In this document: in pieces, positions 4,047-36,268 of the stretch | Layout of the letters: each line of letters opens with the position of its first letter | Position numbering within the stretch: position 1 is the stretch's first letter | Source: an uncultured Candidatus Saccharibacteria bacterium | GTDB taxonomy: Bacteria; Patescibacteriota; Minisyncoccia; Phycocordibacterales; DSPV01 | Assembly (NCBI GenBank): GCA_964617735.1 | Contig: CAZTXT010000001.1 | Span: 331,589 to 395,588 of the forward strand | DNA: 64,000 nucleotides | Direction: 5' to 3' | The notes under the pieces: model-generated | What the model saw: the letters and a program-made list of their open reading frames with translations, nothing else | What the model was told of the DNA's origin: nothing | Databases searched by the model: none | Made by a program: the position numbers and the translations under genes

Positions 4047-5822
4047 CTATTGATTAGTAGTGTCGGACACCGAGAATAATCTCCACACGCGATCGGTTTC
4101 GATGAACCATTCATTGGCATTGAGGAACCGGTCGGAGGGAATGGTAACCGCAGAGATATTCAGACCCTGTATCTCTTTGGGTACGATGTAAATAAAATCG
4201 GGCGAATAAATGAAAGCTGCCGGCATATCCTTTTGAACTTCTTGGGCGAACTCGATGTATTTGTCGATGCGATCAGCGCGTGACGGCGTCGTACGGGCGG
4301 TCTCGAGCAACTTGTCGGCTTTGATATTGGTATAGAGCGCGACGTTGAGTCCTGGATCGTTGCGCTGGGATGAATGCCAGAATGCGAAGAGATCGAGGTC
4401 TCGCCCGATGACTTCGCCGAAGAAGAGGGCATCGTATTCGCGTGGCCGAATGACGTTCTGATTGAGATCGCTCGTGTCAAAGAAGTTCAGCGTCACTTTC
4501 GCGCCGATGCTCTCCCAATTCTCCTTGATGATCTTCGCTGCGGCCTTGAGCTCCGGGGTGTTCGCCGTTGCGATGGAGAATTCGAGTCGGATGGTCTCTT
4601 TTTTTACTGTTTTCTTCAATACGCCGTCGGCAGGGTCGGGCTTCCAGCCGTTGCGCGCGAGCGAGTCGCGCGCTTCCTGCACTGCCGTGGCGAGGTCGGG
4701 TTGCGTTGAAGTGCTCACGGTATTGGCGAACAAATTCTTCGGGAGCGGATTGTCCACCGGGATGCCGTAGCCGGAGAGCACTTCGGAGACGATGCGCTTC
4801 CGGTCGACTGTTTTCGACAGTGCCGCGCGGACCTCCGGGTAGATGAATGCGTGCGCTTTATTCTGATTGAAGAATACGGCAAATATCCTCGGCAATGAGG
4901 TGCTCTCGACGCGCGCGCCGAGGTTTTTGAGGGCCAGTGCCTCATGCGAAGAGATGCTGGAGAGCGCATCGATATCTTTGCGCTCATACGCGTCGATCAG
5001 CGCGACTTCAGTCGGGTAGAATTTCAAGATGATCGAACTAATATGGGCGGTGTCCAGCGCGTAGTCTTTGAACGGGACGAGCGTGTAGGAGAGGGGAATA
5101 CCACCGCTATTGCGTTTGATACTCTTTATCTTGTACGGTCCGGTCCCGATCGGTTCAACATTGAACTGGCTGAAGGCGAACTGCTCGACGTCGACGCTTT
5201 TCCATATATGCGAGGGAAGAATCCCCATCGTGGTGTTCTCAAGGAACGGAGGATAGGGGGTTTTGAGCTTGATCTTTATGGTACGGTCGTCGACCTTCTC
5301 GACGGTGATGCCGTCCCAACTCGCACGGCGGGGGCTCTTGAGGTTCGGGTCCTGCGCTTTCTTGATGGTGAATACTACGTCATCGGCGGTTACCGGTGTT
5401 CCGTCTTGGAATACTATGCCGTCTTTGAGTACGAAGGTGTATTCAAGGCCATTATCCGAGACGTCATATTTTTTTGCGAGGTCTGGTATAAGAATTCCCG
5501 ATGAAGAGACTTTCATGAGACCGGAGTAGACAAGCGACGTCATGTCGCGATCAGCATCGGATATCGCAAGGAGTGGATTGATGAATCGGGGAATGCCGAC
5601 AAGCCCCTCGGTTAACGTACCGCCATTGGCTGGTATCTCGACGGTCAACGCCCGGTTGAGTTTGACGATAAGGGAGACTGATGTGGCAGCGAAGACGCAC
5701 GCGATCGAGAAAAAGATGATCCGCTCGGTGAGAGAAAATGCCGCAAGCACCCGCGCCGCTTTTTCCAGCACCCCGATACGGTACTGTTTTGCTATCGTTT
5801 TCTTGATTTGGCCCGAAATCAC
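4047..5822 (-). CDS. ABC transporter substrate-binding protein, family 5 (peptide/nickel type), membrane-anchored
   Basis: 591 aa with an N-terminal TM segment and SBP_bac_5-like architecture. No adjacent permease genes. Confidence 0.65.
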   Translation of the reverse strand: MISGQIKKTIAKQYRIGVLEKAARVLAAFSLTERIIFFSIACVFAATSVSLIVKLNRALTVEIPANGGTLTEGLVGIPRFINPLLAISDADRDMTSLVYSGLMKVSSSGILIPDLAKKYDVSDNGLEYTFVLKDGIVFQDGTPVTADDVVFTIKKAQDPNLKSPRRASWDGITVEKVDDRTIKIKLKTPYPPFLENTTMGILPSHIWKSVDVEQFAFSQFNVEPIGTGPYKIKSIKRNSGGIPLSYTLVPFKDYALDTAHISSIILKFYPTEVALIDAYERKDIDALSSISSHEALALKNLGARVESTSLPRIFAVFFNQNKAHAFIYPEVRAALSKTVDRKRIVSEVLSGYGIPVDNPLPKNLFANTVSTSTQPDLATAVQEARDSLARNGWKPDPADGVLKKTVKKETIRLEFSIATANTPELKAAAKIIKENWESIGAKVTLNFFDTSDLNQNVIRPREYDALFFGEVIGRDLDLFAFWHSSQRNDPGLNVALYTNIKADKLLETARTTPSRADRIDKYIEFAQEVQKDMPAAFIYSPDFIYIVPKEIQGLNISAVTIPSDRFLNANEWFIETDRVWRLFSVSDTTNQ

Positions 5823-5893
5823 AACAAAAAGATCGAAGATTGAATAAAAATCAAAAGTCAGAGATACGGATCAAGATCGTGAAGGGTCTGTCA

Positions 5894-6142
5894 CTAGCGG
5901 AGCAGCAGGGTGGCGAGCGCTACTGCGGCAAAGAGAACTCCCAGGATGATGGTCCCGATGAACAGAAAACGCTCGGCTCCGCGCCGTGCATGAAAAAACG
6001 AGCTAAAATTCGAGCTCTCGCCGAACGCTCCCCCCAATCCCGCCGATGAGCGTTGGAGGAGGATGGTGGTAATCAGAAGGGCAGAGAGTACGATTTGTAC
6101 GTATGGCAGTATTGAGACTAACGATTGCATTGGAAGTAGCAT
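5894..6142 (-). CDS. secG: Preprotein translocase subunit SecG
   Basis: 82 aa with two TM helices and the 'LLQRSSAGLGGAFGESS' glycine-rich SecG signature. Confidence 0.65.
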   Translation of the reverse strand: MLLPMQSLVSILPYVQIVLSALLITTILLQRSSAGLGGAFGESSNFSSFFHARRGAERFLFIGTIILGVLFAAVALATLLLR

Positions 6143-6208
6143 AGCAGAACAGGGGAGAAATGCAAGAGAATGAAAAGAGCCGGAAACTCCGAATAAGGAA
6201 TTTCCAGC

Positions 6209-6652
6209 TCATGATTGACGCTGGTCATGCCGAGCTTCCTCGGGCAGTTTGTCGAGTATCTTAGCGGAGATATTCTCCACACCTTCTACTAGAGCTCGTA
6301 TAAGACGGTGGGTACCGTCAACAACGTCGCCTTGATAGAGCAGAAGTGGATATCGCCTATCTGCCTGATTAATTCGGCGAATATGATCAGACCAGGTTGG
6401 ATGTTCACCTGCAACCGCTTCCCATGTTCCGAGAGTTCTGTAAGCAGAAAGGAGGTCTCGGGGAGAGAAATCTTTTTGACATGAATCTTTCCAACATTTG
6501 TTGAGTATCTGAGGCTCTAGAGTGCTTATCTTCATCTCGACGTGTTCCGTGTGAGAGGTCAGTCGTATGAGCTTATACACGTCGTAAGATTTTCCTTCTA
6601 CAGTCAGTTTATGAGCATCCTTATCAGTGCTTTCAAATGGCAGGTTCTTCAT
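6209..6652 (-). CDS. ParB/Srx-like nuclease domain protein (hypothetical)
   Basis: 'VVDGTHRLIRALVEG' resembles the ParB N-domain DGxHR motif. The gene sits in a low-GC stretch (about 6150-6800). Confidence 0.4.
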   Translation of the reverse strand: MKNLPFESTDKDAHKLTVEGKSYDVYKLIRLTSHTEHVEMKISTLEPQILNKCWKDSCQKDFSPRDLLSAYRTLGTWEAVAGEHPTWSDHIRRINQADRRYPLLLYQGDVVDGTHRLIRALVEGVENISAKILDKLPEEARHDQRQS

Positions 6653-6818
6653 ACAATGTCTTTCATTTTGTTTTTGGGTGCAGACCTACCCGATAATTTA
6701 GCATATAAGTGGGAGTCTGTCAACTATTTTCAATCGTGAAGCTGACCTATAATGACCACGCCATCAATTCTTTTTATAAGGATCTGAACGGGATTGTTCA
6801 GTAATTTTCCAACTTCGT

Positions 6819-7139
6819 ATGAAGAAACATAGCGCGAAGAAAAATTCTATCAAGGTACGACCGCTCGGCGATCGGGTGCTCATCAAAGAACTTAATAAGA
6901 GCGGAGAAGGAGAAACGAAAAGCGGCATTATCATTCCCGAAACCGTCAGCGATGATAAGGGTGCCAAGAAAGGTACTGTTGTTGCTGTAGGGCCGGGCAG
7001 GATGGAAGACGGGAAGACGATCATGGTGCAGGTTTCAGTTGGGGACACAGTGCTTTTCCAGTGGGGAGATATGATCAAGATCGATGGCGAAGAGTATATG
7101 CTGGTGAGCGAGAGCAATATTATTGCCATTGTGAAATAA
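6819..7139 (+). CDS. groES: Co-chaperonin GroES
   Basis: 'KVRPLGDRVLIK...GIIIPET' Cpn10 signature, immediately upstream of groEL. Confidence 0.9.
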   Translation: MKKHSAKKNSIKVRPLGDRVLIKELNKSGEGETKSGIIIPETVSDDKGAKKGTVVAVGPGRMEDGKTIMVQVSVGDTVLFQWGDMIKIDGEEYMLVSESNIIAIVK

Positions 7140-7146
7140 ACATTAA

Positions 7147-8820
<1,674 letters not shown>

Positions 8821-8913
8821 TGTGAGCAGTCAATCGGACAGTTACGCCCGAAGCCGCCGTTATCAACACCGTATTGATAGCGGCGGTTTTGCTTTTTTCT
8901 TATAATCGAGGGT

Positions 8914-9141
8914 ATGCAAGAACCTAAAAAATCGATGACTGAAGAGGAGTGGTTGGTGTCAAAGCATCCGTCCTTCATCCTGCTTGCGCCGCGCCCGCCG
9001 ATTGTCGCAGCGATGCTCATCATCCTTGCATTGGTAAGTTTCTTGGGCGTTTACGTGGCCTATGTAAAGTATGAACAACTGAAACGGGAGATCAACACTA
9101 AATCACCGCTCGACTCGCACCGCACTCTTTCTCCTCGTTAG
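8914..9141 (+). CDS. Small membrane protein (hypothetical)
   Basis: 75 aa with a single central TM helix. Confidence 0.3.
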   Translation: MQEPKKSMTEEEWLVSKHPSFILLAPRPPIVAAMLIILALVSFLGVYVAYVKYEQLKREINTKSPLDSHRTLSPR

Positions 9142-9233
9142 TCCACCCACTTGCCTAACGGCACTTCACCTGTGCTTTCCGCAATCCACAGCTCTCGGTT
9201 GTGAATTATCGCTCTAAGCGTAAAATAATAGGT

Positions 9234-9347
9234 ATGAAAAACGATCGATATGGGATGAAAAGCGCACAGTTCATTTTGCTGGCCGTTGGGGTCATCATCG
9301 TGGTGTTCGTACTTTCGTACGGGGTCATCACCGGAAAGGCCTTTTAA
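9234..9347 (+). CDS. 37-aa single-TM micro-protein (hypothetical)
   Basis: ATG at 9234 after 'aataggt', ORF 'MKNDRYGMKSAQFILLAVGVIIVVFVLSYGVITGKAF'. Below the cutoff of the ORF track. Confidence 0.25.
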   Translation: MKNDRYGMKSAQFILLAVGVIIVVFVLSYGVITGKAF

Positions 9348-9388
9348 AGCGCGATTGAGGGCTTTTCTTTGCAACGCATTGTGCTACA

Positions 9389-9985
9389 ATGCGTTTGTCT
9401 AGCGCAATCCATAATCATAGAATCATGACTCTCTTCTCTATTCTTTTAGTCATCGTCGTTTTGGTGTTCGCATGGATCGTATTCGCCTACAACCGCTTCG
9501 TTTCTCTCATCAATCGTTCTAAAGAGGCATGGGCGGATATTGATGTACAGCTTAAGCGTCGCTACGATCTCATTCCCAACCTCGTGAACTCCGTGAAAGG
9601 CTATGCAGCGCACGAGAAATCGGCGTTCGAGAATGTTACGAAAGCGCGCGCGAGTGCAATGGGAGCCCAGAGCCTTGCCGATAAGAATCAAGCGGAGAAC
9701 GTGCTCTCGGGAGCGCTTAAATCTTTGTTCGCGGTGGCTGAAGCGTATCCGGAACTGAAAGCGAATCAGAACTTTTTACAGTTACAAAGCGATCTGACCG
9801 ACACGGAGGACAAAATACAGTCAGCCCGCCGTTTCTACAATGGCAATGTTCGCGACCTCAACACCGCGATCGAATCGTTCCCCGGCAATCTCATTGCCTC
9901 TATGTTCCACTTCGAGAAGATGGAACTCTTTGAGCTTAGCGGTGCTGATACCGCTGCGAAAGAGCCAGTTCACGTGAGCTTCTAG
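9389..9985 (+). CDS. lemA: LemA family protein
   Basis: N-terminal TM segment followed by 'NRFVSLINRSKEAWADIDVQLKRRYDLIPNLV', the LemA signature. Paired with htpX as is commonly seen. Confidence 0.8.
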   Translation: MRLSSAIHNHRIMTLFSILLVIVVLVFAWIVFAYNRFVSLINRSKEAWADIDVQLKRRYDLIPNLVNSVKGYAAHEKSAFENVTKARASAMGAQSLADKNQAENVLSGALKSLFAVAEAYPELKANQNFLQLQSDLTDTEDKIQSARRFYNGNVRDLNTAIESFPGNLIASMFHFEKMELFELSGADTAAKEPVHVSF

Positions 9986-10050
9986 CGGCAGAGGAGCCCG
10001 TTTGGCCTGCTGTTATTGTGTTTGCCGTCTCATTCCTATAAGCTATCCTC

Positions 10051-10956
10051 GTGTCTACGCTTTATACCGAGCAATCAAAGAATGTACGCAGGACATGGTT
10101 TCTCATGTCCTTGTTTTTGGCGATAATCATTTGTATCGGCTGGTTCATCAGCTATTACTATCAGAGCCCTGCGATCCTCTATGTCGCGGTAATCTTTTCG
10201 GTAGTGATGAATATCGCCAGTTTCTGGTTTTCGGACAAGATAACCCTCTCGCTCTCCCATGCGATCCCCGCTGACCCTAAGCAGTACCCGGAACTTTTTC
10301 ACATCGTCGAGAATCTTTCCATCACTGCGGGACTTCCTGAACCGCACCTCTATGTCATAAACGATCCTGCCCCCAATGCGTTCGCGACGGGGAGGGATAA
10401 AGAACACGCCGCAATCGCGGTGACGACTGGTCTTCTGCAGATGCTCGACCGCAATGAGCTTGAAGGCGTCATCGCGCACGAACTCTCGCATATCGGCAAC
10501 CGCGACACGCTGCTGCAGACGGTCGTGGTCGTCTTGGTCGGGTTCATCGCGATTTTGGCGCATATCTTCACCCGTTCATCGTTCGGGTTCGGCGGGCGCC
10601 GGCGCGAAGGAGGGAAAGGCGCTGGTATCTTAGTGCTCATCGGCCTTATCTTCGTGATTCTTTCGCCCATCATTGCGCAGTTGATCCAACTTGCTATTTC
10701 GCGGAAACGTGAATTTCTCGCCGATGCCGATGGCGCGCTGTTGACGCGGTTCCCCGAAGGTCTCGCGCGTGCGCTCAAAAAGATCTCCGCCTACGATCAG
10801 CCGATGCAGTATGCCAACCACGCGACCGCGCACCTCTATATATCCAACCCGTTCGGTCCGCATGAGGAGCAGGGGTTTATCACCAAACTGTTTATGACCC
10901 ATCCCCCGATACCGGAGCGGATCAAAGCGCTGTTAGGCAATCAGGCTGTTGTGTAG
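10051..10956 (+). CDS. htpX: Zinc metalloprotease HtpX (M48 family)
   Basis: 'HELSHIGNRD' HExxH motif and four TM segments. Confidence 0.85.
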   Translation: MSTLYTEQSKNVRRTWFLMSLFLAIIICIGWFISYYYQSPAILYVAVIFSVVMNIASFWFSDKITLSLSHAIPADPKQYPELFHIVENLSITAGLPEPHLYVINDPAPNAFATGRDKEHAAIAVTTGLLQMLDRNELEGVIAHELSHIGNRDTLLQTVVVVLVGFIAILAHIFTRSSFGFGGRRREGGKGAGILVLIGLIFVILSPIIAQLIQLAISRKREFLADADGALLTRFPEGLARALKKISAYDQPMQYANHATAHLYISNPFGPHEEQGFITKLFMTHPPIPERIKALLGNQAVV

Positions 10957-11016
10957 TTGAAAGTTGTGGCATTACAGTTTAGAGTGTGAGCGATCACCGC
11001 TGGTCGCAGAAAGACT

Positions 11017-11101
11017 GGAGGAGTCGCATAGTGGCCTAGTGCGCTCGCTTGGAAAGCGAGTAGGGGGAAACCCCTCGAGAGTTCGAATCTCTCCTCCTCC
11101 G
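11017..11101 (+). tRNA. tRNA-Ser(GGA), type II with long variable arm, no encoded CCA
   Basis: Acceptor GGAGGAG/CTCCTCC, D-loop 'agtgg', anticodon loop 'ttGGAaa', long variable arm, T-arm GAGAG-TTCGAAT-CTCTC, discriminator G. Confidence 0.85.
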
Positions 11102-11288
11102 ATGCGATTTTGAGAATACCTTTTGGTATTCGTAATCGCATTTCGTGTGAATGCGAGATTCGAAAGCCGCAGCGCACGGAGCGAGTGGAGCGAGCGAAGT
11201 CCGACCGAAGGTCGGGCGCGAGGCGGGGTCGAGAGTACTTGGATTTTTGGAGTCCGCAGGACGAACAAAAAGCTTAGTAACTCGTGAC

Positions 11289-11345
11289 CGAATCTCTCCT
11301 CCTCCGCCTGAAGAAGAAAGTATCGGAGGTATGCGAAGGCATACC
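11289..11345 (+). repeat. Direct repeat B1 (contains an 18-bp copy of the tRNA-Ser 3' end)
   Basis: Matches 14963-15019 with about 5 mismatches over 57 bp. The first 18 nt equal tRNA-Ser positions 11084-11101. Confidence 0.8.
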
Positions 11346-11409
11346 CCGGTGATGCGCTGCGGAGGGCTAAGTTGGCTTCGCTCGTAGGTTAGGAGTAATG
11401 TGAAAGTCT

Positions 11410-13338
11410 ATGGCATGGGACGACGGTTTAAGCGCAGGAACATCGGCGCATCGGATTGCGGGATCAACCCATCGGCGTATTCGGGTTTTAGCGGGTCCTG
11501 GCACGGGTAAATCCTTCGCAATGAAGCGACGTGTGGCTCGCATACTTGAAGTTGAAGGCATCGATCCTACGCAGGTGCTCGCAGTAACCTTTACACGAGT
11601 TGCTGCTGAAGATATTCAGCGTGAACTTCTGTCCTTGGGTGTGACGGGCGCTGACAGGTTGAAAGCAAAGACACTCCACAGTCTGGCGATGTCGATACTC
11701 ATGCGTAATCATGTGCTTACCGCCTTAGGTCGAGTACCAAGACCTCTCAACAAATATGAACTTGAGCCATTATTGGCAGATTTGAGTAATACACACGGAA
11801 ACAAGCGTGAGCGTAAGCGTTTGATTAGGGCTTACTCTGCCGCATGGGCACGCCTACAAACTCAGGAGCCTGGGTATACTCGCTCTCCAGCAGAACAATC
11901 TTTTGTGGACGATTTGGTTGCCTGGTTACGTTTTCACAAAGCGATGCTCGTCGATGAATTGATACCGCATCTGTACCAATACTTACGAAATAATCCGGGG
12001 GCTCCAGAAAGAAACGAATTTCGACACCTGTTGGTTGATGAATATCAAGATCTAAATCGTGCTGAACAAGACGCCCTCCATTTTCTTGGGGAGAGCGGCT
12101 CTCTTTGCGTTATTGGTGACGACGATCAATCTATTTATAGCTTCAAACACGCACACCCTGAAGGTATTCGTGATTGGAGCACGGTGCACGCGGCAGACGA
12201 TCATGCAATAGAAGAGTGTCGAAGGTGTCCGACCACTGTCGTACGAATGGCGAACGCCCTCATAGCGCGGAACACTGATCGAATTGTGGGCCGTCTGATG
12301 ACCGAGAGACCAGAAAATGGCTCGGGTGAAGTTGTAATACGCCAATACCGGAGTGCCACACAGGAAACGGAGGCAGTTGCCGAAAGAATATCAGCGTTGA
12401 TAGCAAGTGGTATTGCGCCGAGCGAGATTATTGTTCTCACTCAACGCGAAGCATTTGCTACACCAATTTTTGATCAACTGAGAACGAAAAATATCCCAAC
12501 AAAATCCTATTACGCCGAATCGAGCCTCGACACATTGGAGGCCCAGGAGCGCTTCGCGACCCTAAAGCTCCTTTTGGATAACGAGGATCGAATCGCTTTA
12601 CGTTGGCTCCTTGGCTATGGGGCGGCGGATTGGAGAACGAATGCGTATCGACGTTTAATGAATTACGTAAGAGCAAATCACACATCTCCTTGGAATGCCT
12701 TAAATGCGCTGGTGGCAGGTACCGTCAGTGTTCCTTATACAGGCGCTCTCGTGAGTCGATTCAACGTAATCAAAGCTGAACTAGACTCGTTGCAGGGCGC
12801 GGCAAATCTGGATGAATTCATTTCGCGCTGGCTTCCAGAAAACCCCAATACCGCACTTCTCAGTGAAGCTGTCACTCAAAGCAAAGAAGGACTTGAAACT
12901 TCTCAAGAACTTTACGACGCCTTATACGAAGCGATCACGCACCCAGAAATACCATCTGAAGTTTCGGAAGTAAGGATAATGAGTCTACATAAAAGTAAGG
13001 GTCTGAGTGCCCCGTTCGTATTCATTGTTGGCTGCGTTGAGGGCCTCTTACCCGCATCGGCCGATCCGGATCTAACCGAGGACGAGCAAGCCGCAAAACT
13101 CGAAGAGGATCGGCGGCTATTTTATGTCGGAATTACCCGAGTCAAAGCCGACCCTACGGCAAATATAGTAGGGTATTTGGCCCTGACCTATGCCCGTACT
13201 ATGCCTGCGGCCGAAGCATATGTTAGTCAAATTACACCCTCTCAAACCGTAGGAGGAATGGCATATTTGCAGCCGACTCGGTTCATTGCAGAAATGGCTC
13301 CTCACGCCCCTGTGGCACAGACCAACACCCCTCTCTAA
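11410..13338 (+). CDS. UvrD/Rep-like superfamily 1 DNA helicase (short form)
   Basis: Walker A 'VLAGPGTGKS', motif II 'LLVDEYQDLN', 'VLAVTFTRVAAEDIQ', C-terminal 'IMSLHKSKGLSAPFVFIVGC' UvrD_C motif. Confidence 0.8.
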   Translation: MAWDDGLSAGTSAHRIAGSTHRRIRVLAGPGTGKSFAMKRRVARILEVEGIDPTQVLAVTFTRVAAEDIQRELLSLGVTGADRLKAKTLHSLAMSILMRNHVLTALGRVPRPLNKYELEPLLADLSNTHGNKRERKRLIRAYSAAWARLQTQEPGYTRSPAEQSFVDDLVAWLRFHKAMLVDELIPHLYQYLRNNPGAPERNEFRHLLVDEYQDLNRAEQDALHFLGESGSLCVIGDDDQSIYSFKHAHPEGIRDWSTVHAADDHAIEECRRCPTTVVRMANALIARNTDRIVGRLMTERPENGSGEVVIRQYRSATQETEAVAERISALIASGIAPSEIIVLTQREAFATPIFDQLRTKNIPTKSYYAESSLDTLEAQERFATLKLLLDNEDRIALRWLLGYGAADWRTNAYRRLMNYVRANHTSPWNALNALVAGTVSVPYTGALVSRFNVIKAELDSLQGAANLDEFISRWLPENPNTALLSEAVTQSKEGLETSQELYDALYEAITHPEIPSEVSEVRIMSLHKSKGLSAPFVFIVGCVEGLLPASADPDLTEDEQAAKLEEDRRLFYVGITRVKADPTANIVGYLALTYARTMPAAEAYVSQITPSQTVGGMAYLQPTRFIAEMAPHAPVAQTNTPL

Positions 13339-14511
13339 TTGTCTATGAGTAAGGATGATTATTTCTACCAACACTTGCAGAAAAATACCCTAAAAGATAA
13401 GGATGTTTTTTTGTGGGCGGCTTTAAACATTGAAAATAGCTTTTCGGGGCGGGTTGATATTCTTACGACCGGGCTACACCGATTCTTTTTAGAATCATCG
13501 AAGTTAATACTGAATGCGATTAAGCTTTACGAAGAGGGGTTTTTTGATGCCGCCTTCTACAGCACACGCTCTGCCCTTGAACTCGCGAGAGTTGTTACAT
13601 ATTTCTCAAATGAGAATGAACTTCAGGATAGTGAGGAATATAAAAATTGGAGAAAAGGTGGAAAATTCCCTTTTGATGCAGCAATAAGAAAACAACTGGA
13701 AGCAAGTGGAAGTGTGTACACAGAGGTACACACAACATTGAAGGATTTCTTTGACGAGCAGAAGGATCGACTTTCATCCGTTCAAAAATATATACACAAG
13801 CAAGGTTATAGGACCTTTTATGAAAGAGGATTTACGAATCCAGAAAGGGATAAACAACGGCAGGAAGTAATTGCCGATGATTTCTACCAGTTTCTTAAGG
13901 GGACGTTGGCTGAAGTAGCTTTTCTACGTTTATGTATTGATCCGTTCCCAATCCTCTTACGTGATAGTCAGGTAATGTATAAAATTCATTTTCAAGGAAT
14001 GACGGAGCCTTTTAGTGACGATTTTGTTACTAAAATTATTGGAGAAAATAAAATCAAACTGTACCGTTCAACCGAATTTTACGTCTCGCATCTAAATTAT
14101 TTTAGCGACAACGAAGAACTTACCGAAGAGATGTATACATTGGTTAATAACCAATACTACGATAGAAAAACCTGGTCGATTATTCAACCGCAAGTACATT
14201 TACTTTCCAAAAACGACACCGCTGCAGTCAACATATTTAATATCTCAAATAAGATTGCGAAAATATATATGTTTGGCGGGTTTGTTTGGTACTTCAGTGA
14301 TGTTAATTCACCTGGAGACCATACAGGATTTTCTTCAGAAGACTTATTGAGGGTAAAAGAGTCAGAGATAAAAACTAACTCAAAATACAAAGAATCCTAC
14401 ATGTCTTATTTCAACTTCGACGACGATGGTTTATGGGTTGAGCACAACGAGCCGCTAAACAAACCTGAGATCATTGAAATCGAGAAAGTACTCAATCCTA
14501 AGGTTCAATAG
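13339..14511 (+). CDS. Hypothetical 390-aa protein, translationally coupled to the helicase, AT-rich
   Basis: The TTG/ATG start abuts the helicase stop (TAA at 13336-13338). Codon composition differs markedly from the flanking genes. No motif recognised. Confidence 0.55.
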   Translation: MSMSKDDYFYQHLQKNTLKDKDVFLWAALNIENSFSGRVDILTTGLHRFFLESSKLILNAIKLYEEGFFDAAFYSTRSALELARVVTYFSNENELQDSEEYKNWRKGGKFPFDAAIRKQLEASGSVYTEVHTTLKDFFDEQKDRLSSVQKYIHKQGYRTFYERGFTNPERDKQRQEVIADDFYQFLKGTLAEVAFLRLCIDPFPILLRDSQVMYKIHFQGMTEPFSDDFVTKIIGENKIKLYRSTEFYVSHLNYFSDNEELTEEMYTLVNNQYYDRKTWSIIQPQVHLLSKNDTAAVNIFNISNKIAKIYMFGGFVWYFSDVNSPGDHTGFSSEDLLRVKESEIKTNSKYKESYMSYFNFDDDGLWVEHNEPLNKPEIIEIEKVLNPKVQ

Positions 14512-14794
14512 TTACACTACCTTTTGTAATTTTAATCCTGGACTTAAAACACCCCATAAGTTCACGTTTCTCCGCTCCCGTACCTTCTTTCAGAATGTAT
14601 TTCGCGTAGGTCCGTTGATCAACTTCCTCATGTTTCGTCTTGGCTCCGGAGAACCCTAGTACGCTTCGTTGAAACTTGTTGAATCGTTGTAGTTCTTCCT
14701 CGAACTTGTATCTGATGCCCAGCTCGTTGAAATCGACCTTATCCAAGTTTACGTACGAAAGGAAGCCGTGTTTTCGGTTCAAACTTCGGGACAT
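14498..14794 (-). CDS. Hypothetical small protein (about 99 aa) convergent on the helicase operon
   Basis: Internal Met with an upstream purine-rich stretch. The longer ORF reads through repeat B2, so the short form is preferred. Confidence 0.25.
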   Translation of the reverse strand: MSRSLNRKHGFLSYVNLDKVDFNELGIRYKFEEELQRFNKFQRSVLGFSGAKTKHEEVDQRTYAKYILKEGTGAEKRELMGCFKSRIKITKGSVTIEP

Positions 14795-14962
14795 CGTCCC
14801 CGTATTTGCAAAATTGATAGCTTTTGCTATCTCATTTTGCAAACAAGTTGAGGAAGCGGAGCTTCCGTGAGATTCGAACAGCGGAGCGGTGTTTCGCCAG
14901 CAGGCGAAACCGCGAGCTGGTGCCCAGACCGAGCCGAGTGACGACGAGGCGAGAGTTGCGGG

Positions 14963-32943: not shown

Positions 32944-33020
32944 GCCGGGGTAGCTCAGTTGGTTAGAGCGTCCGCCTGAAGAGCGGTAGGTCGCCAGTTC
33001 GACTCTGGCCCCCGGCACCA
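32944..33020 (+). tRNA. tRNA-Phe(GAA) with encoded CCA
   Basis: Acceptor GCCGGGG/CCCCGGC, D-arm 'agctcagttggttagagc', anticodon loop 'ctGAAga', T-arm GCCAG-TTCGACT-CTGGC, CCA at 33018-33020. Confidence 0.9.
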
Positions 33021-34475
33021 GTTGGGAAAAGTCAAAGAATCTTTATTCGCCTCGCTTCGCTCGGCGAGCACTTCGCGCGGCCTGTTCAGCGTAAAATGCA
33101 GTTTCCGATCTTCCAGACAAAAGTTCGAGCCGATGGTTTTAAGAAATGTTGTCATTCCTGCAAAGTTCTCCGAACTTTGCAGAATAAAGGCTTGATTCAA
33201 GGATTTTACGAACTCACGAGCTAGTTCGAGCCACGACAATCCTTTCTGTTCAAAATCAGTGATTTGTTCCTGAAGTTGTAACTTTTGGGAAATGAATTTT
33301 TCTTTTTTCCTCGCGTACTCTTCATGCGTCAACCCCTCACTCAAATACAAGTCTACAAGCTTGTCCAGCTTTTTCTCGACATCGGCTAACTCGACTTTAA
33401 GATTTTGAACAGAAAGGACAGCTTGTTGCCTTGCTCGCCTTTCGTCTTTTTCAAGTTCTGCTAATACCTTCTCCATGTCGTGGCTCGGCAAGGAAACTTT
33501 TCGTAAGAGATTTCTGATTTGCTCGGCTAACTTTTCCTCCCGCACAAAATGCTTTTCTTGGCAGTTTCCTTTTTTCTTGGTGCATCGGTAGTAGTGGTGT
33601 CCTTTCTGTATTTCGGCGGTGATTGAACATCCGCAACTTTTGCATTTCATAAGTCCAAGAAAAGCAAAGTGGTGTTTCTTTATCTCGCAGACCTTGCCGC
33701 GTTTTTCCAAAACCTCCTGCACCTTGTCGAAAAGTTTCTTTGATATGATCGGCTCGTGAGTTCCTTCGAAAATTTCCCCCTTCCACCTCATGAGTCCGGT
33801 GTAGAAAATATTTTGTAGCATGACAGGAATATGGCTCATGGCGATATTGCCGTTTGTATTGCTTTTCAGACCATTTTCCTTGCACCAATTTGCGAGAGAG
33901 TGGAGAGTGTAGTTTCCGGTGGAATACAGTTCAAATAACCTCCTCACTTTTGGGGCTTTCTCCGCATCAACATCAATTCCTCTCGTCTTTGGGTTGTTCA
34001 GGTATCCCACCGGAGCCCAGCCAGGCCAAACGCCATTTCGTATTTTTTGTCTCAAACCTCGCTTCACATTCTCTCGCAAATTGTCTACAAAATATTTTGA
34101 TTGGCCGAAAGCGATATTGAGCATAAACGAACCTTGCGGTGTCGGTTCGAACCAGAAGGTGGGAAATTTCAAAGATCTAATCAAGCCTTTATCAATCATG
34201 TAAATGATGCGTCCACCATCTACACTGTTTCTCGCAAGACGATCGGGGTGCCATGAGACAATACCCTCGGCTTTTCCTTTCTCAATCAATGACAACATTT
34301 CTTGAAACTTGGGACGGCCAGTCTCTTTGGCTGTTTGTGCCTCGCAAAGCGAGGCGACAATTTCAAGTTTTTCTTTGGCGCAATACAAAGACAGCTCAGC
34401 AAGCTGAGCTTGAATTGAAAGCACTTGTCGGTCATCTTCCTCGGTTGATTTCCGAGCGTAGAGGATGTATTTCAT
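32955..34475 (-). CDS. Large serine recombinase (resolvase catalytic domain, recombinase domain and zinc ribbon)
   Basis: N-terminal 'YARKSTEEDD' catalytic Ser motif, zinc-ribbon 'CKSCGCS...YYRC'. The last roughly 20 codons run antisense through tRNA-Phe. Confidence 0.85.
   Translation of the reverse strand: MKYILYARKSTEEDDRQVLSIQAQLAELSLYCAKEKLEIVASLCEAQTAKETGRPKFQEMLSLIEKGKAEGIVSWHPDRLARNSVDGGRIIYMIDKGLIRSLKFPTFWFEPTPQGSFMLNIAFGQSKYFVDNLRENVKRGLRQKIRNGVWPGWAPVGYLNNPKTRGIDVDAEKAPKVRRLFELYSTGNYTLHSLANWCKENGLKSNTNGNIAMSHIPVMLQNIFYTGLMRWKGEIFEGTHEPIISKKLFDKVQEVLEKRGKVCEIKKHHFAFLGLMKCKSCGCSITAEIQKGHHYYRCTKKKGNCQEKHFVREEKLAEQIRNLLRKVSLPSHDMEKVLAELEKDERRARQQAVLSVQNLKVELADVEKKLDKLVDLYLSEGLTHEEYARKKEKFISQKLQLQEQITDFEQKGLSWLELAREFVKSLNQAFILQSSENFAGMTTFLKTIGSNFCLEDRKLHFTLNRPREVLAERSEANKDSLTFPNWCRGPESNWRPTALQADALTN
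33014..33094. repeat. Inverted repeat a, left copy (includes the tRNA-Phe CCA end)
   Basis: Reverse complement of 34530-34610. Confidence 0.8.
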
Positions 34476-34529
34476 GGTTTTGGTGAGAGTTAGTTGATAA
34501 AAATGTTCTTGTATTCTTCCCTAGGGAAT

Positions 34530-34610
34530 TTCACGCTGAACAGGCCGCACGAAGTGCTCGCCGAGCGAAGCGAGGCGAATAAAGATTCTTTGACTTTTCC
34601 CAACTGGTGC
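34530..34610. repeat. Inverted repeat a, right copy
   Basis: Contains a copy of the recombinase C-terminal coding segment (ORF 34494..34679 shares '...FTLNRP.EVLAERSEANKDSLTFPNWC'). Confidence 0.8.
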
Positions 34611-34695
34611 ACTACTCTTGAATTAGTCCGAACGCATTTTGCCGCCGCAGGCGGCGAGGACTGTCCGCGCGAGAATTGAGCGGGCGGAGCCCGCA
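34607..34695. repeat. Inverted repeat b, left copy
   Basis: Reverse complement matches 35995-36085 over about 55 bp at the outer ends, with a variable centre. Confidence 0.7.
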
Positions 34696-35008
34696 TCTTT
34701 TCAAACAGCCAAAGAGGACTAATTCAAGAAAACCATCGACTCGAACTTTTGTCTGGAAGATCGGAGGGAAGAACACAAGAACATTTTTATCTGATTTAAC
34801 GGCCTAGAAAGGCCGTATTTTGATGGTTGTTCTGTACCTTGACTAAACACAAGCTATATGTTATTCTCTCTGCAGTTCGTTGTAAGCGAGTATTTTTGGA
34901 ATTGCCGTAGCATTTGCGGGCTTGTTGGCTTTGTCTAACACGTTTAACTAACAAAGGACTATCGCATGTGAAAGATGACTTGAGTGAGTCATCTAAGTCA
35001 ACGTAGCA

Positions 35009-35722
35009 GTGCACTATAAGCCTATGGATCCAAAAAAGACTCATAGGTTACCTCATCTCCCTCGTCGTCCACGTCCGGCTGGAGAAGCTGAACGCTTGTC
35101 TCGCTGGTTTCGTGACAGGGATATGGAGCTGCAGATTCGCCGAAACCAGGAACGTCGTGGAGAAATACACAACGTTCCGGTCCCTCTAAAAGATCGGATT
35201 CGAAAGAAGACTGATCCGAAAGAGTGGGCTGGCCCTTTTCACAAGGGGGTCAAGGTTGGTGAGATCCGCTCACTCGTGGTTGGGTATACCGCAGTAATGG
35301 TAGACCCAGTGTTTGTTGCAGTGCTGAGCGAATGGCCGCCGAACCCAGAAGTTAAGGAACCCTACTCGAAAGAGAAACGGTTTCTGATCGCAAAGTTCAG
35401 CAGCAAGCGCTACAGTGAACCCGCAACAACAACCGAGTGGATTACTGGCATTGAGAAGCGACCGTGGCTACACGTTTTATCCGTGTGGAACAGTTGCGAC
35501 GTCAGTGCCGGTTTCCTTGAGGAAGGTTGGGTCGAGGGGAAACTCTCGACTGAACAGCTCGCTGACGCATGGGAAGTATTCAGACATGCGTTGACGGGAG
35601 TTCCTCTGTCTGATCGAGTTCGTGCTCAAGTGGGTGCGCCAATAATTCACCCACGAGATCCACGCATTCAGTATCAGATCGAGGAGGCTTCAAGGTTTGC
35701 GGTTCTCTGCGAAGGCAGCTAA
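35009..35722 (+). CDS. Hypothetical 237-aa protein (cargo of the tRNA-Phe element)
   Basis: ORF enclosed by the inverted repeat b pair. No motif recognised. An upstream sigma70-like 'TTGACT...TATATG' lies at about 34840-34868. Confidence 0.45.
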   Translation: MHYKPMDPKKTHRLPHLPRRPRPAGEAERLSRWFRDRDMELQIRRNQERRGEIHNVPVPLKDRIRKKTDPKEWAGPFHKGVKVGEIRSLVVGYTAVMVDPVFVAVLSEWPPNPEVKEPYSKEKRFLIAKFSSKRYSEPATTTEWITGIEKRPWLHVLSVWNSCDVSAGFLEEGWVEGKLSTEQLADAWEVFRHALTGVPLSDRVRAQVGAPIIHPRDPRIQYQIEEASRFAVLCEGS

Positions 35723-35994
35723 CCCATGTGAGGTAACCAATACTGGGAGATCAGAGCATCTGATCGGTTGAACCAGCGGGGGACGGAGAAAACGCCCTGG
35801 CAACAGAAGCTAGTACGGGATCATAAGCTACATACATTCCCGAAAGCACAACTAGGTACGGCAACTACCTCAATCGTTGCATTCAAGGAGCGAGGTTCTA
35901 TCCCAAACTCCGCCGCACACATAAGTGTGCGGTTTTTCGTATTCGCTTGGCGAATGCTAGAATTAGTTTGCGCCAAAGAAAAACTTGAAATTGT

Positions 35995-36085
35995 CAAAGA
36001 TCGCGGGCTCCGCCCGCTCCGTTTTTACGGGGGGTGTCCTCGCCGCCTACGGCGGCGAAATGCGTTCGGACTAATTCAAGAGTAG
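35995..36085. repeat. Inverted repeat b, right copy
   Basis: See inverted repeat b, left copy. Confidence 0.7.
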
Positions 36086-36226
36086 TGCACAAGAAAATCG
36101 GCGCAAGCCGATTTTGCGTGATGGGGGCCAGAGGGGGAAGGGGTCGGGGAACAGGGACGTTCCCCGATGAGGAGAGCAGTCTGCCGAAGGCGAGACGTTG
36201 AGAACCGCGGGTTCTCAAGGAGCGTA

Positions 36227-36248
36227 GCGACTCTGTGCCCCGGCACAA
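36227..36248 (+). repeat. Partial copy of the tRNA-Phe 3' end (attR-like)
   Basis: 'gcgactctgtgccccggcacaa' vs tRNA 'ttcgactctggcccccggcacca' (20 of 22 identical). Confidence 0.6.
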
Positions 36249-36268
36249 GAAAATCGGCGCAAGGATAT

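Follow-up and report, generated by a model that had tools for sequence, protein, structure and literature searches.

What kind of DNA is bounded by the paired inverted repeats downstream of the tRNA-Phe gene of an uncultured Candidatus Saccharibacteria bacterium, and how did the single gene enclosed by one of these pairs come to lie there? The locus is part of a 64,000-nucleotide stretch (GCA_964617735.1, contig CAZTXT010000001.1, positions 331,589 to 395,588 of the forward strand), hereafter the window, to which all coordinates refer. An initial annotation, based on the letters alone, described an inverted pair enclosing a 237-aa orphan ORF, abutting a first inverted repeat and sharing a GTGC junction with it, and proposed a composite or modular integrative element of unknown cargo whose far boundary is marked by a tRNA-Phe 3′ fragment and a 21-bp direct repeat. 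The observation itself holds: each of these sequence features is present at the locus. The interpretation is only partly supported, since the modular integrative element carrying a gene is upheld and extended by comparative data, while the boundary, the origin of the direct repeat and the independence of the two repeat pairs were misread. The element appears to be a 3-kb integrated unit with a large serine recombinase (LSR), belonging to a widespread and apparently undescribed family of Patescibacteria.

Repeat architecture at the tRNA-Phe locus

The inverted pair found by the initial annotation (here the Y arms, IRb) aligns over 95 columns at 87% identity (BLAST E 2.9e-26 within a 3.5-kb self-comparison). 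The outer 55 nt match at 53/55, about 17 nt in the centre are diverged, and the inner ~24 nt match again apart from one gap; this inner match had been missed. The pair abuts IRa (the A arms, 83 nt, 98% identity) and overlaps it at GTGC. The direct repeat GCACAAGAAAATCGGCGCAAG is exact (21/21) at 36087 and 36243 (E 5e-6). The tRNA-Phe 3′ copy at 36228-36249 matches 33000-33021 at 19/22 rather than the 20/22 first given, and the best −10 of the promoter-like site is TATTCT, with TG upstream, rather than TATATG. The ORF at 35009-35722 exists, but its likely start is the ATG at 35024, which is the form held in the protein database and the start shared with homologues. It has no Pfam, PADLOC or Rfam match. 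None of these repeats has another copy in the 64-kb window. In addition to the two long pairs, there are five pairs of short inverted patches (b-f); pair c lies within the LSR coding region, and the others have one copy in the LSR gene or its leader and one copy beside the enclosed ORF (Table 1). A single large RNA structure formed by all inverted pairs is ruled out because the pairs cross each other (y/e, f/b/d) and cannot all nest, and Rfam finds only the tRNAs.

Table 1. Features of the tRNA-Phe locus (window coordinates; functional roles of arms and junctions are inferred from sequence).
Coordinates	Strand	Feature	Basis
32944-33020	+	tRNA-Phe (GAA), occupied attachment site; GCAC 33015-33018 is the shared core; the CA of CCA (33019-33020) comes from the element	ARAGORN; Rfam, 70 bits; att alignment; empty-site reconstruction
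33015-33097	−	A arm next to the tRNA (IRa left); on the minus strand it encodes the last ~28 conserved codons of the LSR; P-type half-site side of the split attP copy (attR-like junction A|tRNA)	
32955-34475	−	LSR gene, 506 aa (Resolvase, Recombinase and Zn_ribbon_recom domains); the ORF reads through the A arm into the antisense tRNA, where it stops	
33104-33156		Patches b (33104-33140) and c (33136-33156) in the LSR 3′ coding region; inverted copies of 34729-34765 and 34288-34308	
34288-34383		Patches in the LSR 5′ coding region: c partner 34288-34308; d 34323-34337 (inverted copy 34702-34716); e 34356-34383 (inverted copy 35968-35995, 28/28)	
34496-34522		Patch f in the LSR 5′ leader; inverted copy 34765-34791	
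34528-34700	+	Intact internal A·core·Y unit (attP-like, inverted relative to the split copy): A arm 34528-34610, core GTGC 34607-34610, Y arm 34607-34700 (left arm of IRb); includes a terminator-like hairpin 34680-34694	nhmmer E 3e-44
34702-34791	+	Block of LSR-sense patches d, b and f upstream of the cargo, plus a 14-nt copy of the Y outer end at 34716-34729	
34799-35023	+	Cargo transcription signals: hairpin 34799-34816, promoter-like TTGACT-17-TATTCT 34839-34867, ~155-nt leader	Equivalent promoter in the relative L001
35024-35722	+	Cargo ORF, 232 aa from the ATG (237 aa from GTG 35009); uncharacterised family; predicted central domain with a MazF/PemK-like fold	
35723-35933	+	Conserved non-coding trailer with a predicted multi-helix RNA structure, ending in the terminator 35912-35933	5 compensatory pairs against L001
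35968-35995	+	Patch e copy (LSR codons ~31-40 in sense orientation), directly inside the right Y arm	
35996-36090	−	Y arm at the far end (right arm of IRb); P′-type half of the split attP copy (attL-like junction Y|flank), core GCAC 36087-36090; distal boundary of the element	
36091-36118	+	Original downstream flank of tRNA-Phe, the hairpin AAAATCGGCGCAAGCCGATTTT; the first copy of the 21-bp repeat is the core plus the first 17 nt of this flank	
36228-36263	+	Copy of the unoccupied attachment site, outside the element: tRNA-Phe 3′ end (17/19), GCAC, and the flank (17/17)	34/36 match; 0 chance matches in 100 shuffles

The LSR contains the N-terminal resolvase-type catalytic domain (PF00239, E 5.7e-22 over residues 4-150) with the motif YARKS and Ser10 as the nucleophile, followed by the recombinase domain (PF07508, E 1e-17) and the zinc ribbon (PF13408, E 2.6e-7). 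Residues 169-413 align to the C-terminal domain of A118 integrase, the closest solved relative (4kis/6dnw, E ~1e-6), including the coiled-coil region.

The distal boundary is the Y arm with its GCAC core, not the tRNA fragment and repeat. The unoccupied site rebuilt from the two flanks (full tRNA-Phe followed by ...CCCCGGCAC|AAGAAAATCGG) recurs over 36 nt just beyond the element, and this copy contains the second 21-bp repeat (Table 1). A target duplication is therefore rejected: the first repeat copy starts at the core that ends the Y arm, and the two copies flank only 135 bp (36108-36242) without element homology. Moreover, serine recombinases make no target duplication, and a tRNA-3′-end-like fragment beyond the far end occurs in only 3 of 41 related loci, so it is not a family feature. 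Although direct repeats of a tRNA 3′ end classically flank tRNA-integrated islands, and the exact repeat forms a 36-nt unit with the tRNA fragment, an island ending at this fragment is very unlikely. The repeat is better read as attB-like sequence left by an older event, for example a decayed tyrosine-integrase island at the same tRNA. In the same way, a terminal-inverted-repeat transposon does not fit, because the ends of the whole element are an A arm and a Y arm that are not repeats of each other and the flanks carry only the shared core, even though each module taken alone does have inverted ends.

A recombinase family at tRNA 3′ ends

At least 576 relatives of the LSR were found; the best 80 are 66-74% identical and almost all lie in Patescibacteria MAGs. 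The same seven inverted pairs recur at the same relative positions (a in 60, b in 49, e in 49, f in 47, y in 45, d in 43 and c in 33 of 81 loci). These loci were chosen by LSR similarity and their repeats detected by BLAST thresholds, which biases the within-locus identities upwards. In 63 of 70 loci with enough downstream sequence the LSR gene runs antisense into the 3′ end of a tRNA gene that abuts the A arm, covering 13 amino-acid types and 24 isoacceptors. A three-way alignment of att sites in 41 loci, in which the attP is the internal copy of the element and not an observed circle, gives a common core of 4-8 bp, mostly GTGC or TGGTGC, and the core changes with the tRNA 3′ end. The two inverted pairs are thus not independent but are halves of one ~175-190-bp repeated unit that carries the inferred recombination core. 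In the metagenome contig L100 (loci are numbered with the prefix L), A and Y appear as one continuous 189-nt inverted repeat. Across loci, A arms are joined to tRNA ends, Y arms are joined to non-tRNA flanks, and inside the element an A arm is joined to a Y arm. A TCGAAC-like motif sits 12 nt from the core in the tRNA and 17 nt from it in the Y arm; the recombinase probably reads the T-arm there. A TTGnnn-17-TATTCT motif spans the core.

Natural variants of this arrangement exist. Fourteen metagenome contigs carry the alternative A′·Y adjacency: in L089, L093, L097 and L101 the LSR segment is flipped, L099 and L100 contain an A′·Y·e junction (tandem or circle type), and L097 (2,702 bp) is exactly one element. 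L061 has both A arms on tRNA-Ala genes, L072 is a solo LSR module and L055 is an empty slot. L100 is not a circular contig, because its two ends are only 93% alike, and is more likely a tandem of diverged copies or a strain chimera. L021 was rejected as a tandem array since it holds two different LSR subfamilies (44% identity) at neighbouring tRNAs. Loci L009 and L013 are 93% identical exactly from the Y outer end to the A outer end, next to different tRNAs; however, they also share their left flank at 87%, so this pair does not prove transposition of the whole unit.

The recurrence of the layout in dozens of independent assemblies from different projects makes an assembly artefact highly improbable, although short-read contigs do break at these repeats (L004, from SRR12313479, L012, L027 and L046). 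A prophage remnant is equally improbable: only 2 partial LSR hits occur among 2.9 M viral contigs (IMG/VR), and there are no phage genes in or beside the 3-kb element. A phase-variation switch, in which the recombinase flips the Y-bounded segment to turn the gene on and off, is suggested by an inverted-repeat-bounded segment beside a recombinase gene and by both orientations of the neighbouring LSR segment in metagenomes, but is very unlikely. The promoter, ORF and terminator all lie inside the arms, so that flipping would not uncouple them. Every GTDB-derived locus in which Y arms were detected has the same configuration; flipped variants appeared only in the targeted metagenome scan, and where the tRNA junction can be read (L093) it is the LSR segment that is reversed. 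The enzyme is integrase-type rather than a small Hin/Gin-type invertase, and the link to tRNA ends and variable content is not needed for a local gene switch.

Between the Y arms, the slot always holds about one gene in the same orientation, between the same patches, in 45 loci. These 45 slots give 41 unrelated clusters, including SDR, methyltransferases, radical SAM and a symporter.

The predicted element and its enclosed gene

Taken together, positions 33019-36090 (3,072 bp) are best explained, with fairly good confidence, as an integrated mobile element built from two modules whose ends are recombinase half-sites in inverted orientation. Module A is the LSR gene flanked by A arms, of which the one next to the tRNA doubles as the last ~33 codons of the recombinase; module B is a one-gene cargo slot flanked by Y arms. 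In this view an A arm, a core (here GTGC) and a Y arm form an attP-like site, and the matching attB is the 3′ end of a tRNA gene. The excised circle, whose junction would read ...GAGTAGT-GCAC-CAGTTGGGAAAAG, would carry two inverted attP copies separating an LSR segment from a cargo segment, and integration through one copy would split it, which explains why the two inverted pairs abut and share GTGC. The architecture, the cores, the tRNA association, the variable cargo and the flipped, A′·Y·e, solo and deleted variants are directly supported by the sequences. That the LSR catalyses these events, that a circular intermediate exists, where the 2-bp crossover lies within GTGC and that cargo modules move are inferences. 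There is no direct evidence of excision, a circle or inversion in this genome, and a Logan contig that ends at the Y arms is explained by repeated k-mers. The Y arms are only 87% identical here, against 97-100% in most loci, so this copy may be old or immobile. Since canonical serine integrases do not recombine attP with attR, the flips could instead be RecA-mediated across the 100-bp arms. The model also does not explain the short patches and their concerted evolution. They read as a circularly permuted mini-copy of the LSR gene (order d, b, f, cargo, e), but no parsimonious series of events starting from a simple inverted or tandem duplication followed by deletions was found.

The enclosed gene is a self-contained transcription unit with its own promoter, leader, structured trailer and terminator. 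Its status as cargo is not settled for this locus. Conservation of the gene at this position without repeats had been named beforehand as evidence against a mobile cassette, and this condition is half fulfilled: in L001/L002, the only close relative with the gene (72% aa, 76% nt), the whole unit from promoter to terminator is again the first thing after tRNA-Phe, and the upstream small membrane-protein gene is syntenic, yet there is no LSR and there are no inverted repeats. Neither BLAST (word size 7) nor an nhmmer profile of the internal unit detected element remnants around the L001 copy. The gene may therefore be an ancestral neighbour of tRNA-Phe that was enclosed secondarily when recombinase-element sequences landed on both sides of it, possibly through rearrangement between the internal site and a pseudo-site such as the tRNA-like fragment just downstream. 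Unlike most other cargo genes, this unit has its own promoter and does not start right after patch f, and many slot genes in other loci look like ordinary housekeeping or metabolic genes. This alternative is nevertheless considered unlikely, because of the uniform one-gene slot in 45 loci, its position between att-type junctions and the slot with its gene that lies between two LSR copies in L100. In addition, no simple series of site-specific events was found that places the Y·e block beyond a resident gene, and downstream synteny between the window and L001 is broken exactly at this gene, as expected for an island.

A more far-reaching possibility, which remains tentative, is that Patescibacteria carry a phylum-wide gene-cassette system built on a serine recombinase. 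Non-autonomous one-gene cassettes bounded by inverted Y half-sites would be docked, flipped, exchanged and moved between the 3′ ends of many different tRNA genes by autonomous LSR modules bounded by A half-sites, as a functional analogue of integrons and a driver of tRNA-to-tRNA chromosome inversions. The conserved, co-evolving 18-37-bp patches would then be a programmed regulatory or rearrangement device, such as antisense control of the recombinase or directed deletion, rather than debris.

CPR/Patescibacteria have tiny genomes for which few mobile elements have been described. A single recombinase family with hundreds of copies that docks one-gene payloads at many different tRNA ends would be a major and so far unnoticed route of gene flux and genome rearrangement in these bacteria. 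Full-text searches of PMC and bioRxiv returned no description of this architecture, which is absence of evidence only. The data also yield computationally defined attP and attB pairs for hundreds of natural serine integrases whose target is a near-universal tRNA feature, which is of practical interest for genome engineering. The double inverted attP design and the co-evolving patches pose a clear mechanistic question, accessible to simple recombination assays.

Comparison with known systems

For the enclosed protein, which is toxin-like but of unknown function, the closest counterparts by predicted structure are MazF/PemK (CcdB/MazF superfamily) toxins. Residues ~78-175 are predicted to form the same small β-barrel, and the top 50 PDB Foldseek hits are all MazF-family (best E 1.8e-3, target TM 0.74). 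However, there is no sequence or profile similarity: no Pfam hit at E ≤ 0.1 was obtained, and hhalign of the 28-sequence family profile against B. subtilis MazF gives a probability of 0.1%. The protein is twice as long, with an N-terminal helix and a highly conserved C-terminal helical region. No adjacent antitoxin gene is present, as the transcription unit contains no second ORF, only the structured non-coding trailer. Longer homologues sit in four-gene operons with a giant STAND NTPase.

The element as a whole is closest to serine-integrase elements, such as those of phages A118/LI, phiC31 and Bxb1. It shares the enzyme architecture, short att sites with a small common core, the absence of a target duplication, and a ~5-nt outward shift of the distal motif in the attP-type half-site relative to the attB-type half-site, as is reported for A118 (Rutherford et al., 2013). 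In contrast to these, it is a 2.4-3.3-kb non-phage element, attB is the 3′ end of many different tRNAs with only one recognisable half-site conserved, the recombinase ORF crosses the att site, a second, intact and inverted attP copy is kept after integration, and no candidate directionality factor gene is present in the 3 kb. SCC elements (SCCmec), moved by Ccr large serine recombinases, also dock at the 3′ end of a conserved gene without destroying it and carry variable cargo; a tandem or composite arrangement may occur here too, but only L100 (and possibly L099) suggests it. SCC elements are 20-60 kb, target rlmH, have one attSCC site per circle and lack both the A/Y double inverted-repeat design and the one-gene slot.

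Tycheposons of Prochlorococcus (bioRxiv 10.1101/2020.12.28.424599) are likewise cargo-carrying elements that integrate at several tRNA genes in streamlined genomes and leave partial tRNAs and remnants. However, 910 of 937 tycheposons and related elements use tyrosine recombinases, many carry replication genes, and each integrase is tied to one tRNA; the integrase class found here is the minority one in that family. Here a single LSR family covers 24 isoacceptors, and the elements are minimal, lack replication genes and are flanked by inverted rather than direct repeats, with direct partial-tRNA repeats in only 3 of 41 loci. In integron gene cassettes, each unit is similarly a single promoter-poor gene bounded by imperfect inverted recombination sites, with hypervariable content and expression from element-supplied signals (here the copy of the LSR leader). 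Integrons use the tyrosine recombinase IntI, single-stranded attC hairpins, arrays at attI and direct insertion, none of which is present; the only recombinase is the LSR, and no tyrosine recombinase ORF lies in the region. The yeast 2-micron plasmid, with FLP and its two inverted repeats, and the Hin invertible segment resemble the predicted circle, in which two inverted repeats containing the recombination site would delimit two segments, one encoding the recombinase; both relative orientations occur, and as with hin the recombinase gene lies inside the flippable segment. FLP is a tyrosine recombinase, and Hin is a small (~190 aa) serine invertase with a C-terminal HTH that acts on ~26-bp inverted sites with an enhancer. 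Here, the enzyme has 506 aa, the arms are 83-100 bp long and tied to tRNA ends, no replication role is known, and the repeats would also serve as integration sites.

Repeats and genes at the tRNA-Phe locus

The inverted pair described in the initial annotation (IRb) is real. The outer 55 nt of its arms match 53/55, about 17 nt in the centre differ, and the inner ~24 nt match again. The left arm overlaps the right arm of a second inverted pair, IRa, at a shared GTGC. The 21-nt direct repeat is exact, and a copy of the tRNA-Phe 3′ end lies beyond the far arm; none of these repeats occurs elsewhere in the window. Converging on tRNA-Phe is an ORF with Resolvase, Recombinase and Zn_ribbon_recom domains, a large serine recombinase (LSR) whose closest solved relative is A118 integrase. 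This ORF runs through the tRNA-proximal IRa arm and stops inside the antisense tRNA. Besides IRa and IRb there are five short inverted pairs (patches b to f), 15-37 nt each, which link the LSR leader, three places in the LSR coding sequence and the LSR 3′ end with two short stretches, one containing patches d, b and f and the other patch e. Downstream of the region lie HSP20 and PrsW genes on the other strand. An independent short-read assembly of the same sequence (L004, the Logan contig of SRR12313479, equal to window 34610-36079) breaks exactly inside both Y arms (the arms of IRb), as expected from the shared 33-nt identical k-mers; this is not evidence of inversion.

Features of the tRNA-Phe locus, in window coordinates
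Feature	Coordinates	Strand	Description
tRNA-Phe	32944-33020		
LSR ORF	34475 to 32955	minus	506 aa
LSR read-through into the antisense tRNA	32955-33097	minus	
IRa (A arms)	33015-33097 / 34528-34610		83 nt, 98% identity
IRb (Y arms)	34607-34700 / 35996-36090		95 alignment columns, 87% identity, E 2.9e-26
GTGC shared by IRa and IRb	34607-34610		
Intact A·core·Y unit	34528-34700		
Promoter-like site spanning the core	34590-34618		-10 is TACTCT
Patch c	33136-33156 / 34288-34308		Both copies inside the LSR ORF
Block with patches d, b and f	34702-34791		
Patch e	35968-35995		
Promoter-like site of the cargo gene	34839-34867		TTGACT-17-TATTCT
Cargo ORF, most likely start	35024		ATG, giving 232 aa
Cargo trailer	35723-35933		Counterpart at 6697-6915 in L001
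tRNA end and flank joined to predict the empty site	33000-33018 and 36091-36107		
Direct repeat	36087 and 36243		21 nt, exact
Inverted copy of the tRNA-Phe 3′ end	36118-36133		14/16
Copy of the tRNA-Phe 3′ end	36228-36249		19/22
Copy of the predicted empty site	36228-36263		36-mer, 2 mismatches

Distribution of the architecture and its attachment sites

A scan of one genome per species found more than 576 relatives of the LSR, of which the best 80 are 66-74% identical and lie almost entirely in Patescibacteria/CPR MAGs of many classes. With the LSR placed on the plus strand, the same set of inverted pairs recurs at the same relative positions (primed arms and patches are the LSR-sense copies, unprimed ones their inverted copies). 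A arms of ~100 nt flank the LSR, whereas Y arms of ~90 nt flank a segment 580-1750 nt long, upstream of the LSR. Patches f, b and d lie just inside the Y arm nearest the LSR (Y′), patch e lies just inside the distal Y arm, and patch c pairs two places inside the LSR ORF itself. In 81 loci the pair counts are a 60, b 49, e 49, f 47, y 45, d 43 and c 33, figures limited by the many short contigs that break at the repeats. Repeat partners are 97-99% identical within a locus, although detection by similarity inflates this figure somewhat, but only 67-87% identical between loci for a, y, f, b and d (96% for e); they therefore evolve in concert. The design is broader than the family sampled: in L021 (116-1863) a second LSR subfamily, only 44% identical, has its own 126-nt inverted arms and sits at tRNA-Lys, immediately next to a typical element at tRNA-Leu.

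Read on the cargo strand, the patches around the cargo (order d, b, f, cargo, e) are sense copies of LSR nt 137-157, the LSR 3′ region, the LSR leader and LSR nt 85-119. Together they form a circularly permuted mini-copy of the LSR gene with the cargo in place of its first 85 nt, and on the LSR strand they are all antisense to the LSR mRNA. They co-vary with the gene (97-99% within a locus; 69-87% between loci, and 96% for e). Patch c is an 18-21-nt perfect inverted repeat, conserved in 33 loci, that pairs codons ~58-63 (FQEMLS) with the start of the C-terminal tail (MTTFLK). These co-evolving short patches are a real feature that the present model leaves unexplained.

In 63 of 70 loci with enough downstream sequence, a tRNA gene lies antisense immediately after the A′ arm, and these tRNAs cover 13 amino-acid types and 24 isoacceptors. 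In nearly all intact copies the LSR ORF does not stop before the attachment site but continues through a conserved tail (...TFLKNIGSN...VAERSEA...FPxW) into the antisense tRNA, so that its last 3-40 residues depend on which tRNA it sits in. Three junctions were aligned in 41 loci: A′+core+tRNA; A′+core+Y, which is the internal junction read on the other strand; and flank+core+Y. They share a core of 4-8 nt, mostly GTGC or TGGTGC, the reverse complement of the tRNA's ...GCAC(CA), and this core changes with the tRNA end, for example GTGG for tRNA-Ala. This is the classical relation of attR, attP and attL. IRa and IRb are therefore the two halves of one A·core·Y unit, of which one copy stays intact inside the integrated element and the other is split by integration into the tRNA. 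In metagenome contig L100 the two halves do appear as a single continuous 189-nt inverted repeat. A T-loop-like TCGAAC motif lies 12 nt from the core on the tRNA side in 28 loci, and 17 nt from it in the Y arm in 29 loci. A118-type integrases are reported to show a similar ~5-bp offset between attB and attP half-sites (Rutherford et al., 2013), which is consistent with this reading but does not prove it. In the family consensus of the A·core·Y unit, a promoter-like TTGnnn, 17 nt, TATTCT spans the core, with the -35 in the A arm and the -10 in the Y arm, followed ~60 nt later by a terminator-like hairpin inside Y. The intact unit could therefore make a short Y-arm RNA, and integration would destroy the promoter of the split copy; in the window the -10 is weaker.

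In the window the far junction retains only GTGC. The tRNA-Phe gene therefore originally lacked most of its CCA, and the element now supplies the CA. Joining the tRNA end to the flank predicts an empty site that recurs downstream as a 36-mer, against 0 matches in 100 shuffles. The tRNA fragment plus direct repeat is thus a copy of the unoccupied site, lying 137 nt beyond the element, and not a target duplication. Comparable tRNA-3′-end fragments exist in only 3 of 41 loci. An inverted copy of the tRNA-Phe 3′ end lies directly after the tRNA's terminator hairpin, between the element end and the empty-site copy, and also suggests older events at this tRNA; a decayed tyrosine-integrase island is one possible origin. 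The locus holds several relics of tRNA-end sequence. The interpretation in the initial annotation is partly supported: its modular reading is broadly right, but the far boundary that it placed at the tRNA fragment, and its view of the repeat as a target duplication, are wrong.

Natural variants and cargo

A pattern scan of metagenomes for the alternative adjacency (LSR 3′ end, A′, core, Y) found 14 contigs. Four of these (L089, L093, L097 and L101) have the LSR segment flipped, in the order tRNA, A, leader, LSR, A′, Y, patches d-b-f, cargo. L093 shows the tRNA-type 3′ end joined directly to A, and L097 (2,702 bp) is exactly one element from end to end. In flipped copies the LSR ORF reads on through the Y arm and reaches 509-547 aa (...WCSILELVRTHF...). 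Contigs L099 and L100 have A′·Y followed by patch e, the junction expected in a circle or a tandem array, and in L100 a complete slot lies between two LSR copies that are 93% alike. The remaining contigs are deletion derivatives joined at patches (L094 at d|b and L095 exactly at c/c′), plus LSR-less forms. Four further variants occur among the genome loci. L061 (about 5790-7500) has its LSR module flanked on both sides by tRNA-Ala genes (cgc and tgc), each joined to an A arm; this is the product expected if the internal site recombined with a second tRNA gene, which would invert the chromosome segment between the two tRNAs. L072 is a solo LSR module with one non-tRNA flank, L055 has an empty slot, and L087 is deleted at patch d. 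These variants fit a modular rule in which A arms join tRNA ends, Y arms join ordinary flanks, and A joins Y internally. They also show that the arms are active recombination substrates, whereas catalysis by the LSR is only inferred; the flipping may be due either to this enzyme or to homologous recombination. The LSR is nearly absent from 2.9 M viral contigs, with only 2 partial hits.

In 45 loci the Y arms enclose about one gene, divergent from the LSR, and the longest ORFs fall into 41 clusters, almost all singletons. Of the 33 longest ORFs submitted to a Pfam search, some match known families, including three methyltransferases, an SDR, a NAD(P)HX dehydratase, a radical SAM enzyme, a solute symporter, AHSA1, a FAD enzyme and an HTH protein, while others have no match. 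In many loci the cargo ATG follows patch f, a copy of the LSR leader, within a few nucleotides. Two loci, L009 and L013, carry the same element at 93% identity exactly between the outer ends of Y and A′, next to different tRNAs; because their other flank is also homologous, this pair shows rearrangement at the tRNA junction rather than clean transposition.

For the 232-aa protein of the window, a word-indexed search found only 8 homologues, whereas an exhaustive profile search found 837 cluster representatives, typically 330-350 aa long. None has a Pfam or PADLOC assignment. The longer homologues examined (363-399 aa) sit third in a conserved four-gene operon that ends in a 1,500-1,900-aa STAND (NACHT/AAA_16) NTPase, in mobile contexts. 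In the three operons examined (contigs L005-L008, around 6660-14800), the genes encode 151-157 aa, 279 aa, the homologue (371-391 aa) and a 1,544-1,887-aa STAND NTPase, next to relaxase or integrase genes, which looks like an uncharacterised conflict or defence system. An AlphaFold model built on 28 sequences is confident (pLDDT 83, pTM 0.80). Its predicted central β-barrel matches only MazF-family toxins among PDB chains (the top 50 hits, best E 1.8e-3, target TM up to 0.74), but there is no profile-level support for this. The most conserved residues lie in the C-terminal helices. The gene has its own promoter-like site, a ~155-nt leader and a ~190-nt non-coding trailer that is more conserved than the coding region against L001, a contig of the only close relative that has the gene. 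The trailer has a predicted multi-helix fold with five compensatory pairs, although only two sequences were available, and may be a structured RNA partner of the protein with the predicted MazF-like fold. Taken together, a conflict-system or toxin-like protein is proposed from sequence and structure prediction alone.

In that relative (contigs L001 and L002), the same transcription unit is again the first thing after tRNA-Phe and the upstream gene is syntenic, yet there is no LSR, no repeats and no profile hit to any element part. Either that lineage lost the element cleanly, or the gene is an old neighbour of tRNA-Phe that became enclosed in the window, an alternative considered unlikely.

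Comparison with known systems

The structure is one member of a large, apparently undescribed form of LSR element, found almost entirely in CPR bacteria; full-text literature searches of PMC and bioRxiv returned no description of it. It does not satisfy the criteria that define Hin-type invertons, classical IS elements or integrons. By enzyme and att logic, it is a serine-integrase integrative element. By behaviour it resembles SCC/Ccr cassettes, which dock at the 3′ end of a conserved gene, and tycheposons, which carry cargo into several tRNAs. The predicted circle, with two inverted site-bearing repeats around the recombinase gene, recalls the 2-micron plasmid.
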